This document shows positions 6,001 to 9,000 of a stretch of 10,739 bases of DNA, piece by piece. The position numbers were made by a program. Source of the DNA: a virus (Duplodnaviria; Heunggongvirae; Uroviricota; Caudoviricetes); IMG/VR virus record IMGVR_UViG_2703719365_000002; one strand, given 5' to 3'. Each line of letters opens with the position of its first letter. Positions within the stretch are counted from its first letter, which is position 1.

Positions 6001-9000
6001 CGTGTCGTTGTCTCCGAAGTAAAACGGCTTGGCCTGATGCACAAACGCCCTGACATACGCTCTGAAACCGTCCACGTTTGGCGTTTTCAGTTGCGGGATA
6101 ATTTTCTTCAGGCGGCGTTTTCGTTTCTCGTTGACCGCAACAGCGTGTGGAAGTCTGTCACCGACTTCGGTGTTGTAGGCGTTCAGGAAGGATTCGTAGT
6201 CGATTCGTTCTGCCTTGCGACGTTCAGGTTTAACCTGCCCATCGCCATCCCCGTTAGGGGGTAAGGGGGTATTTGTATTTATTGTCTTTTGTATATTGTC
6301 TTTTGTGTTTAGCTGACTTGGCTTATACCCATTAGCCGACTTGGCTAATGTTTTATTAGCTGTTTTAGCTAATGTTAAGCTGTCCTGGCTAATCCACTGA
6401 GAAACCACCTTGTTCACTCCGATTTTCACGCCATCAGCAATGAGGAATTTACGCTCAATAAGCTGGCGCTTGGCAGCGCAAACATGAGTGTGATGAATAC
6501 CTGTCATGGCTGCTATCTGCGTGTTTGTGAGTCGATCCATCGGCTTATTGAATCCGTATGTCTTGCGCATGATAGCGAGCATCACCTTCAACTGCCGGAC
6601 GGTTAAATCAGCCATCAGCAGACTGTCGGTAATCTCGTTAGCAACGCGCATGAAACCATCTTCGGTATCTGCCACGCGATGCTCCACGACCTCCAGTTGA
6701 GGCCTGTAATCAGCTAACTTAACGACGCCCATGTTTCACTCCTGCTTTGGCTAGTCTGTAAACACCAACAAGGCGCTCTGCGAACGCCCTGTTATTTGCT
6801 GCGGCTACCACTAATCCCTCAGGTGAATCAGGGTGTCGAATCTCTTCTTTTTCCTGGTATTTCTTACGACGTTTTGTCATAATTACTCCTGTGGATTGAT
6901 CCAGTAATTCCCTCAGAATTGCATATCAATTTGCTTAAAATCCTCGGTGGCAGCCGGGGATTTTTTCTTTGTGATTTCATCAAGCGCATACTTAAAAGCC
7001 CTGCTAATCGGACTGATGTCTGATGCCATTCCGAAAGCACACAAGACCGAAGCAATAAACCGCCAGTCCGTTCTGCTTATCTTCGATTCATGACAGCCAA
7101 TCATCTTTGCCAGACCGCGCTGTGTAAGCGTTGACAGGTTGATGAGTAAATCTGTTTCTGCGCGATCAACGTCGCGCTGTGATAGTTTGCTGTAACTTGT
7201 TCGTTCCATTTCTTAAGATTTCCAATAGTGAATAGTTAGTTGAAAGGTATGCGTGGAAACGCATATGGCCTTAGTTGGTCAGATATCTTGGGACTCGCTT
7301 TTCAGCGACGTAGGACGAATGTCCGTTGTTACAAAGAGCGGCTCCGCTTATTAAGCGGCTTTGTGCTCCGGCGGGAACACGTCATCAAGACTTACTTTTG
7401 CGCCTAACTTGTTTAGACACGCAACAAGAGCACGGCATGTTTTAAGGTCTGGGAAGCGACGACCAGATTCCCAATGTCCGATAGCTCCCTGTGTGCATCC
7501 AACTGCCTTAGCAAGTGTTGTTTGAGAGATATTCAGTGACTCTCGATATTTTCGTAGGTTGCTCATATGCCCTCCATAGTAACCACGAATAAAAAATACA
7601 ATATGTACTTCTCAAATACAAGTAAAAATACACATTGTGCATGGATGGTTCCAGTACAGAGCGTAATAATAAGGACATGAAAATGAAATGGTATGAACTG
7701 GCTAGATCCAGAATGAAAGAGCTCGGCATAACTCAAGAGAAGTTAGCCGAAGAGCTAGGTATGACGCAGGGTGGAATTGGACACTGGTTGCGCGGATCTC
7801 GTCATCCATCTCTTAGTGATATTGGTGTGGTGTTTAAATACCTTGGTATTGATAACATATCATTCAACCACGACGGGACATTTTCACCTGTTGGCGAATA
7901 CTCATCGGCCCCAGTTAAAAAACAATATGAGTACCCTGTTTTTTCTCATGTTCAGGCTGGGATGTTCTCTCCAGAACTCAGAACCTTTACCAAAGGTGAT
8001 GCGGAGAGATTGGTAAGCACAACCAAAAAAGCCAGTGACTCTGCATTCTGGCTTGAGGTTGAAGGTAACTCAATGACCGCACCAACAGGTTCCAAACCTA
8101 GTTTTCCTGACGGGATGTTAATTCTGGTTGACCCTGAGCAAGCTGTTGAGCCCGGCGATTTCTGCATAGCCAGACTTGGTGGTGATGAATTTACCTTCAA
8201 GAAACTGATCAGGGATAGCGGTCAGGTGTTTCTACAACCACTAAACCCGCAATATCCAATGATCCCATGCAATGAGAGTTGTTCCGTTGTGGGGAAAGTT
8301 ATCGCCAGCCAATGGCCTGAAGAGACGTTTGGGTAAAGAGGATAGATGGAGTTTAATGGCCATGAGTATCAAGCGGTCAAAAAGAAGTTCATCTATTCAT
8401 TGAAAGCATAAGGCCATCTGAGTATATCCGTAATGATCTGGATATTGTCTATAACATCAATGACCGGACGATAGATATCGGTGAGCAGCGTCCTGTATGG
8501 CAGGGTGAGGCAGGTGAAAAAACGTCCTGCCATCAACAAGAATCAAGTGCATCCGCTCTCTGGACAGATGGAAAATTTATTGGATGCAAAAAGATATGAA
8601 ATAACACCTGTATAGCACGGAGCTTTCTCTGACCGATGCACTTGAAGTTGTTAGGGCTGACCCAGCCTGCTGTTTCTTTAGGTAAGAGAAAAGAGATTTA
8701 GGAGATGAAAGGTCGCAGAGGTGCGGCCTTTTTTATTGAGAGTGGATCTTGAACGGAAATTCTCAAGACTTGAGTCTTGCATGCAAATCAATTCCTGGAT
8801 AAACTCGATCTGAGTCAATAACTTAGAGAGAGAGCAAATGGCAAAGTCAAACGTTAGCGTGCAGGCATTCAAGGACTTCCTTGAAGAGCTTATGTCGCTG
8901 AACATAATGAAGGAGGCCACCGCTCGAAATTTAAAAAACTCATCCGCTCGCCTCTTAACGGTAGTCCAAGAAGAGGAAATGGGTGATGTTACTCAGCTTG

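Follow-up and report, generated by a model that had tools for sequence, protein, structure and literature searches.

How far is a phage repressor with the C-terminal domain of lambda cI otherwise a lambda repressor, where does its lambda-type part begin, and does such a combination amount to a new immunity? These questions are raised by the cI gene (7677-8336, + strand) of a 10,739-nt stretch of Caudoviricetes DNA (IMG/VR record IMGVR_UViG_2703719365_000002; the whole stretch is termed the window). The 10.7-kb window aligned over its full length with Stx2a_WGPS4 (99.9% identity) and was 99.8% identical to phage 1717, with Nil2, 2851, and YYZ-2008 as close relatives; it constitutes the early and immunity region of a Shiga toxin 2 (Stx2) prophage of Escherichia coli O157:H7. 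A preliminary description had portrayed the gene as a lambda-type C-terminal domain joined to an unrelated DNA-binding domain, with operators bearing no resemblance to those of lambda and a new immunity specificity. In the reading favored here, held with a probability of about 90%, the gene encodes the prophage repressor of an Stx2 phage of the VT2-Sakai/Nil2 immunity, a two-module protein generated by recombination in the linker between its domains.

Domain anatomy of the repressor and position of the joint

The coding sequence and its landmarks were located as follows:

7677-8336 (+): cI repressor coding sequence, 219 open codons followed by TAA
7641 (+): alternative ATG start, 231 aa, chosen in AP005153
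7683 (+): alternative ATG start, 217 aa, chosen in the VT2-Sakai and WGPS4 records
7677-7925 (+): N-terminal DNA-binding segment (the head), residues 1-83
7926-8333 (+): lambda-identical block (the tail), residues 84-219, spanning the C-terminal linker portion, the region of the cleavage site, and Peptidase_S24
7956-7961 (+): scissile-bond codons Ala94-Gly95, equivalent to lambda Ala111-Gly112, in invariant alignment columns
8010-8012 (+): Leu112 codon TTG, lambda W129 (TGG), the sole amino-acid difference in the block
8070-8072 (+): Ser132 codon, equivalent to the lambda Ser149 nucleophile
8199-8201 (+): Lys175 codon, equivalent to the lambda Lys192 general base

Alignment with the cI gene of NC_001416, as DNA and codon by codon, revealed that residues 84-219 correspond to lambda precursor residues 102-237 (mature 101-236) with 135/136 identical, bearing out the proposal that this domain is almost residue-for-residue that of lambda; the same residues aligned without gaps with the crystallized C-terminal fragments of lambda cI. 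The transition is abrupt at nt 7925|7926, where 12/12 preceding codons differ from lambda and 10/10 following codons are identical, and sliding nucleotide identity with lambda rises from ~0.37 to 0.97 at ~7924-7926 before dropping to ~0.23 after 8329 (stop codon). The lambda-like DNA is an island of ~410 bp that starts at the TAT codon at 7926 and whose last sense codon ends at 8333. Its edges match functional boundaries, one lying in the linker between the domains, 10 residues upstream of the Ala-Gly bond, and the other at the end of the gene, beyond which lambda carries rexA/rexB and the window unrelated sequence. Pairwise alignment to lambda cI and to other repressors, a check suggested in the preliminary description, had thereby placed the joint in the inter-domain linker.

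Domain searches with Pfam identified HTH_3 at cI residues 11-58 (nt 7707-7850; E=1.9e-10, 41 bits compared to a cut-off of 23) and Peptidase_S24 (PF00717) at residues 87-209 (99.7 bits), and the top match among solved structures was the lambda repressor 3bdn_A (E=2.6e-96). The protein displays sequence features of the LexA/S24-type repressors of the lambda cI class, including the HTH_3 head, the S24 domain with its Ser/Lys dyad, and the Ala-Gly bond in the context VQAGMF as in lambda. Both the cleavage site and the dyad fall within the identical block, from which it is sound to infer that the self-cleavage chemistry is conserved; the determinants of dimerization and cooperativity all lie within the same block.

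The head had been described as unrelated to the helix-turn-helix of lambda over its first ~80 residues, which proved correct as to lineage and overstated as to homology. No nucleotide similarity to the lambda head was found and indels separate the two, while the protein retains 30% identity to the lambda N-terminal domain over 50 aa (pairwise BLASTP, E=8e-8) or 23% in a multiple alignment, and in a search of the whole PDB the head structure of lambda, 1lli, was matched marginally (E=0.0024). The head is a remote homologue of the same fold, 18 residues shorter than the lambda head and devoid of its N-terminal arm. The Gln that opens the recognition helix of lambda, a residue of established role in that phage, is conserved in the head (alignment including GMGQSGVGALFNG). 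The head belongs to a family that includes the repressors of phage L/ST64T, epsilon34/Oslo, and VT2-Sa, with identities of ~48-55% to the ST64T and L (C2) repressors, ~48-52% to those of vB_SosS_Oslo and epsilon34, and ~50% to various Vibrio, Klebsiella, and Proteus phage repressors.

Recombination history of the C-terminal block

The C-terminal block was found behind two types of head, the change-over falling at one and the same residue, and the junction reads ...SLRSE|YEYPVF behind the lambda head (lambda, HK106, and SfI) and ...PVKKQ|YEYPVF behind the window head (window, 683R2, PhiR57_1, and PhiR11_1). Together with the sharp boundary this upholds the domain-swap joint within a single gene that had been proposed. 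Among eight C-terminal sequences with the shared block, four gametes were detected in 117/325 informative site pairs and 3/26 informative sites split by head type, and 683R2 has a window-type head yet HK106/lambda-like alleles right after the joint. These four-gamete conflicts and the mixing of alleles mark the shared segment as one within which heteroimmune phages actively recombine by homology. Mosaicism at domain boundaries is a textbook trait of lambdoid repressors.

The exchange is old. The island is 93.1% identical to lambda at the nucleotide level with 28 differences, 27 synonymous and one non-synonymous, giving a synonymous divergence (dS) of 0.39 and a ratio of non-synonymous to synonymous divergence (dN/dS) of 0.008; it is a long-diverged allele, kept nearly invariant as a protein by purifying selection, and not a recent copy of laboratory lambda. 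The same figures bear on an explanation by which no recombination took place and the whole gene diverged, with a fast head under selection for specificity and a tail frozen by constraint. Such a history would be in keeping with the detectable homology of the head and the lambda N-terminal domain and with heads that outpace tails in divergence across the family, but it would have to reconcile a tail dS of only 0.39 with a head lacking nucleotide similarity and containing indels, a transition confined to one codon with homology also ending exactly at the stop codon, and the same tail alleles, with their four-gamete conflicts, on both head types. It is considered very improbable, and uniform divergence was rejected on the synonymous-site evidence and the one-codon boundary.

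Still less credible is a cI gene that is an assembly chimera or the decaying remnant of a defective prophage. The neighboring DnaB-like helicase is frameshifted by 1 nt and the prophage copy may be replication-defective; against this, 44 phage records that were sequenced independently, induced and plaque-forming phages among them, agree at 99.9-100% over 1.4 kb of the cI region, the immunity module is present in 776 complete genomes, and the cI frame is intact with the dN/dS given above. An assembly artefact was rejected because the same sequence is replicated across many records.

The direction of the swap is a separate matter, as the recombinant may be either the cI of lambda itself or that of the window lineage. 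In the first case the head and tail of the window would be the older, vertically inherited combination, and lambda cI would have acquired a C-terminal segment of the VT2-Sa/epsilon34 lineage behind a lambda-type head, operators, and cro. Collinearity of the window with phage Oslo (epsilon34-type) runs from cro (43%) through the head (48%) and tail (80%) to the downstream 173-aa gene (77%) and takes in the linker (PVKPQFEYP in Oslo vs. PVKKQYEYP in the window). In P13374/TL-2011c, the nearest outgroup of the lambda head (56-62%), identity of the tail to the shared block is only 64-65%, below the 80% of Oslo. Both observations lean slightly toward lambda as the recombinant, but a homologous swap of an Oslo-like tail for a lambda-type tail yields the same collinear picture and fits equally well, the comparison rests on a handful of sequences, and the tail alleles are themselves reshuffled, which makes outgroup distances unreliable. 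A recombinant lambda cI is thus regarded as possible at somewhat less than even odds, and to speak of a lambda C-terminal domain on a foreign head reflects historical precedence. A wider suggestion, tentative and rather unlikely as a whole, is that the lambda-type tail serves as a shared homology handle for repeated crossover and module exchange among heteroimmune lambdoid and Stx phages, with lambda cI possibly a recombinant and W129L possibly retuning the SOS threshold and toxin release in O157 Stx phages.

Operators, Cro, and the proposed mechanism

Six sites with a TAC-N5-GTA core were identified in two regulatory zones, the right operator region (OR) between cro and cI and the left operator region (OL) upstream of N, by a search for this pattern and tabulation of half-sites. 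Their centers lie at 7602, 7634, and 7660 (OR) and at 9831, 9864, and 9889 (OL). These sites and the associated signals, including the rightward and leftward promoters (PR and PL) and those for repressor maintenance (PRM) and establishment (PRE), are:

7594-7610: OR1-like operator, AAATACAATATGTACTT, which overlaps the inferred PR; AP005153 and AP000422 annotate a putative operator
7626-7642: OR2-like operator, AAATACACATTGTGCAT, its center 43 nt from ATG 7677 (42 nt from OR2 to cI in lambda)
7652-7668: OR3-like operator, CAGTACAGAGCGTAATA, overlapping the inferred PRM -10
9823-9839: OL3-like operator, AAATACAAAGCGTTGTA
9856-9872: OL2-like operator, TAGAACAAATTGTATTG, overlapping the PL -35
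9881-9897: OL1-like operator, AAGTACATATCGTACTA, between the PL -35 (TTGACC) and -10 (TACTAT)
7351-7566 (-): cro, 71 aa, HTH_3-type (Pfam E=4.2e-12), divergent from cI
7187-7200 (+): CII box TTGC-N6-TTGT, PRE-like, inside the 5' end of cII and directed at cI
9661-9682 (+): terminator-like hairpin at the end of the cI operon just before OL, the pRM-transcript terminator of the VT2-Sakai annotation

With up to one mismatch the pattern occurs 30 times in the window, and six of these occurrences are concentrated in the two regulatory zones, ~260 bp in all, an enrichment there. An inverted-repeat search at OR detected no operator dyads, because their arms measure only 3-5 nt. Reverse-complemented, OR1 has nearly the sequence of OL1, and the mean best identity of the six sites was 11.5/17 mutually, 7.0/17 to the lambda operators, and ~5.1/17 to random 17-mers, compared to a mean best match of 12.2/17 for the lambda operators among themselves. 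The half-site consensus is AAGTACAAT here vs. TATCACCGC in lambda, and the operators clearly belong to another specificity. The earlier statement that they bear no resemblance to those of lambda holds for the consensus and was slightly too strong otherwise, since both sets share an odd-symmetric 17-bp format, a layout of 3+3, and the half-site positions A2, A5, and C6. The OR regions of ST64T (equivalent to phage L immC; L010 1115-1195) and Oslo (L008 860-945) contain the same ATAC-N-GTA cores at similar spacing, and the epsilon34 operator has been predicted as WTACRAWWTGTAT (PMC2629481).

A scan for sigma-70 promoters called PL at 9870-9898 (TTGACC, 17 nt, TACTAT; -10 at 9893-9898), and PR and PRM were positioned by lining up the reverse complement of OR with OL and by analogy to lambda. 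The inferred PRM -10, AATAAT at 7665-7670, precedes A7677 by 7 nt, which together with the near-lambda distance of OR2 makes a leaderless PRM transcript, OR2-activated as in lambda, plausible; ATG 7677 is also kept in ST64T and Oslo. An AAGGA at 7671-7675 lies 7 nt before ATG 7683, and this pair could serve transcripts from the PRE-like CII box. The count of the CII-box pattern in the window was not above chance (2 found vs. 1.5 expected), and the box was accepted only for its position and for the equivalent CII site annotated in the VT2-Sakai record AP000422.

The Cro protein is 35% identical to the cI head, with a nearly identical recognition motif (TQGAIGHW), and 69% identical to the ST64T/L Cro; cro, the operators, and the cI head constitute one specificity module. 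The 1.4-kb cI/cro region (1,401 nt) was 100% identical to 1717, YYZ-2008, WGPS4, and WGPS6 and 99.9% identical to Stx1-converting and Stx2-II phages, with putative operators and promoters marked in the matching records. The cI DNA differs from VT2-Sakai at one base, and the C-terminal block is 99.8% identical. The cro-operator-head module was present in 776/5,426 complete E. coli genomes. The claim of a new immunity specificity consequently failed, as the type is the common and already annotated one of VT2-Sakai/Nil2.

We infer with high confidence that the repressor shuts PR and PL through the TAC-N5-GTA sites, is inactivated by self-cleavage that RecA stimulates, and confers an immunity distinct from that of lambda. 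In the proposed mechanism, the HTH_3 head (residues 1-83) would read the 17-bp TAC-N5-GTA-core operators, three at OR and three at OL over PL, and the tail (residues 84-219) would contribute the Ala-Gly site, the Ser/Lys self-cleavage dyad, dimerization, and pairwise and long-range cooperativity. In the lysogen the repressor would silence PR and PL while activating PRM, its own promoter, and during the SOS response the RecA filament would stimulate self-cleavage, separating head from tail and inducing the phage and Shiga toxin. This arrangement would have originated when linker recombination set the specificity module (head, operators, and cro) beside a C-terminal segment common to heteroimmune lambdoid phages, which keep recombining within it. 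At the level of sequence patterns, the LexA/S24-type organization is further matched by the divergent cro, the three sites in OR and the three in OL, and the overlap of OL with the PL hexamers.

Several points weigh against this reading. The OR1-OR2 spacing is 32 bp compared to 24 bp in lambda, such that lambda-like pairwise cooperativity at OR is not guaranteed, and the sigma-70 scan returned no call for PR or PRM. Leu replaces an otherwise conserved Trp at the lambda-129 position, Trp being present in lambda, HK106, SfI, 683R2, Oslo, ST64T, P13374, and HK620 and Leu in the window, VT2-Sakai, PhiR57_1, and PhiR11_1; the replacement could change cleavage or stability, and an effect of Leu112 may be exerted on cleavage-site docking or on the induction threshold. 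The same phage encodes an Ant antirepressor with a C4-like RNA, and RecA cleavage may therefore not be the sole route of induction. No binding, immunity, or cleavage experiment on this repressor was found in the searchable literature.

The repressor governs the immunity and induction of Stx2 prophages, and its cleavage would therefore gate Shiga toxin release in O157:H7. As the tail is that of lambda, lambda biochemistry (cleavage, dimerization, cooperativity, and looping) should transfer almost directly to a clinically important phage, leaving only the head and operator code to be worked out afresh.

Neighboring genes and comparison with known repressors

The map of the window runs opposite to the lambda orientation and its genes are:

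Minus strand: Ant antirepressor, NinE, methylase, NinB-like, DnaB-like helicase, O-like, cII, cro
Plus strand: cI, two small accessory genes, N
8838-9359 (+): gene for a 173-aa product, located downstream of cI where lambda has rexA/rexB

The 173-aa product matched no Pfam family and is 77% identical to its homologue in the Salmonella phage Oslo, which likewise follows cI. A second gene in the rexA/rexB position of the cI operon lies at 9533-9655 (+) with no function assigned, and both are candidate accessory or exclusion genes expressed in the lysogen. Between cI and these genes, ~500 bp past the cI stop (8337-8837, +) are without an annotated gene in all matching records; hairpin plus T-run motifs occur at 8654-8668 and ~8706-8735, and no Rfam family matched this interval.

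The DnaB-like replicative helicase gene (4539-5914, -) is split into two open reading frames (ORFs; 5429-5914 and 4539-5363) with the break near 5430-5440. Its span of 1,376 nt, compared to an intact 1,377-nt coding sequence in Stx2a_WGPS4, indicates a 1-nt deletion that frameshifts the gene, which means that this prophage copy is defective or that the sequence contains an error. The Ant ORF (343-1077, -; Pfam ORF6N and P22_AR_C) is 735 nt vs. 765 nt in Stx2a_WGPS4, a 30-nt offset that fits an in-frame indel, possibly within an internally repetitive stretch. Directly upstream of Ant, two Rfam matches at gathering level were identified (1130-1315, -), a C4 antisense RNA (1130-1213, 66.7 bits) and isrK (1239-1315, 74.7 bits). 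C4/isrK and Ant constitute a c4-ant module like that of P1/P7 immI, a possible second and cleavage-independent way to inactivate the repressor.

The gene, its head family, and the modular pattern are already known, and the present analysis adds little as a discovery. The GenBank entry as a cI "similar to bacteriophage lambda CI" dates from the VT2-Sakai record, which also annotates cro as "similar to bacteriophage L C2", and a description from 2008 covers the head family and the lambda-like tail found in its relatives. A study by Fattah et al. from 2000 (Genes Genet Syst 75:223) reportedly compared these immunity regions. A 2022 survey assigned the repressor, 61% identical overall to that of lambda, to the same clade as the latter (Clade I; PMC8951638), and the "hair-trigger" induction paper does not treat the VT2-Sakai-type repressor. 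Neither the 135/136 identity nor the exact joint was found stated explicitly in the literature searched; they are a refinement and not a new kind of thing.

Among the Stx phages, the cI genes of VT2-Sakai (Sp5, BAA94122), Nil2, 1717, YYZ-2008, and the Stx1-converting and Stx2-II phages are accompanied by the same operators, cro, and downstream genes as in the window. VT2-Sakai cI carries a single additional amino-acid replacement in its C-terminal domain; nothing substantive differs between the Stx-phage records and the window, and only the start codon is disputed (7641, 7677, or 7683). By its sequence the window falls within the VT2-Sakai/Nil2 immunity type (Clade I CI of Stx phages).

Compared to lambda cI (NP_040628; PDB 3BDN, 1F39, and 2HNF), the repressor is alike in the linker from Tyr101, Ala111-Gly112, Ser149/Lys192, and the C-terminal domain, and the locus in its divergent cro, 3+3 17-bp operators, OL-OR distance of ~2.2-2.3 kb, and OR2 ~42-43 nt from the cI start. 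It differs in a Cro of HTH_3 type instead of the lambda Cro fold and in the replacement of rexA/rexB. Membership of the lambda immunity group was excluded by the head, 23-30% identical to that of lambda vs. 98-100% in HK106, SfI, and mEp332, and by the operators with half-site AAGTACAAT and not TATCACCGC. A published claim of lambda CI binding to VT2-Sa operators was not counted as evidence for cross-immunity, since it relies on apparent dissociation constants of 3.7-6.4 µM and the text mentions no control with non-specific DNA.

The specificity module is related to that of ST64T/L (C2, immC), with which it shares a head at 48-55% identity, Cro at 69%, ATAC-N-GTA cores, and similar OR spacing (34/26 bp in ST64T/L vs. 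32/26 bp in the window), whereas the ST64T/L C-terminal domain is of the 434/HK620-like type and only 44% identical to that of the window. The recognition helices were compared, TQGAIGHWLNG being one of the two, and the same OR cores and an almost identical ST64T Cro recognition helix make it conceivable that the immunity systems of E. coli Stx phages and of Salmonella phage L partially recognize one another. The repressors of epsilon34 (gp46) and vB_SosS_Oslo have the same two-module make-up, Oslo being collinear into the downstream gene, and the epsilon34 protein has been described with a tail ~80% identical to lambda and a head ~50% identical to L, VT2-Sa, and Nil2 (PMC2629481). Unlike the window repressor, their tails are 80% and not 99% identical to lambda, and with a head 48% and a Cro 43% identical to those of the window their specificity is probably different.

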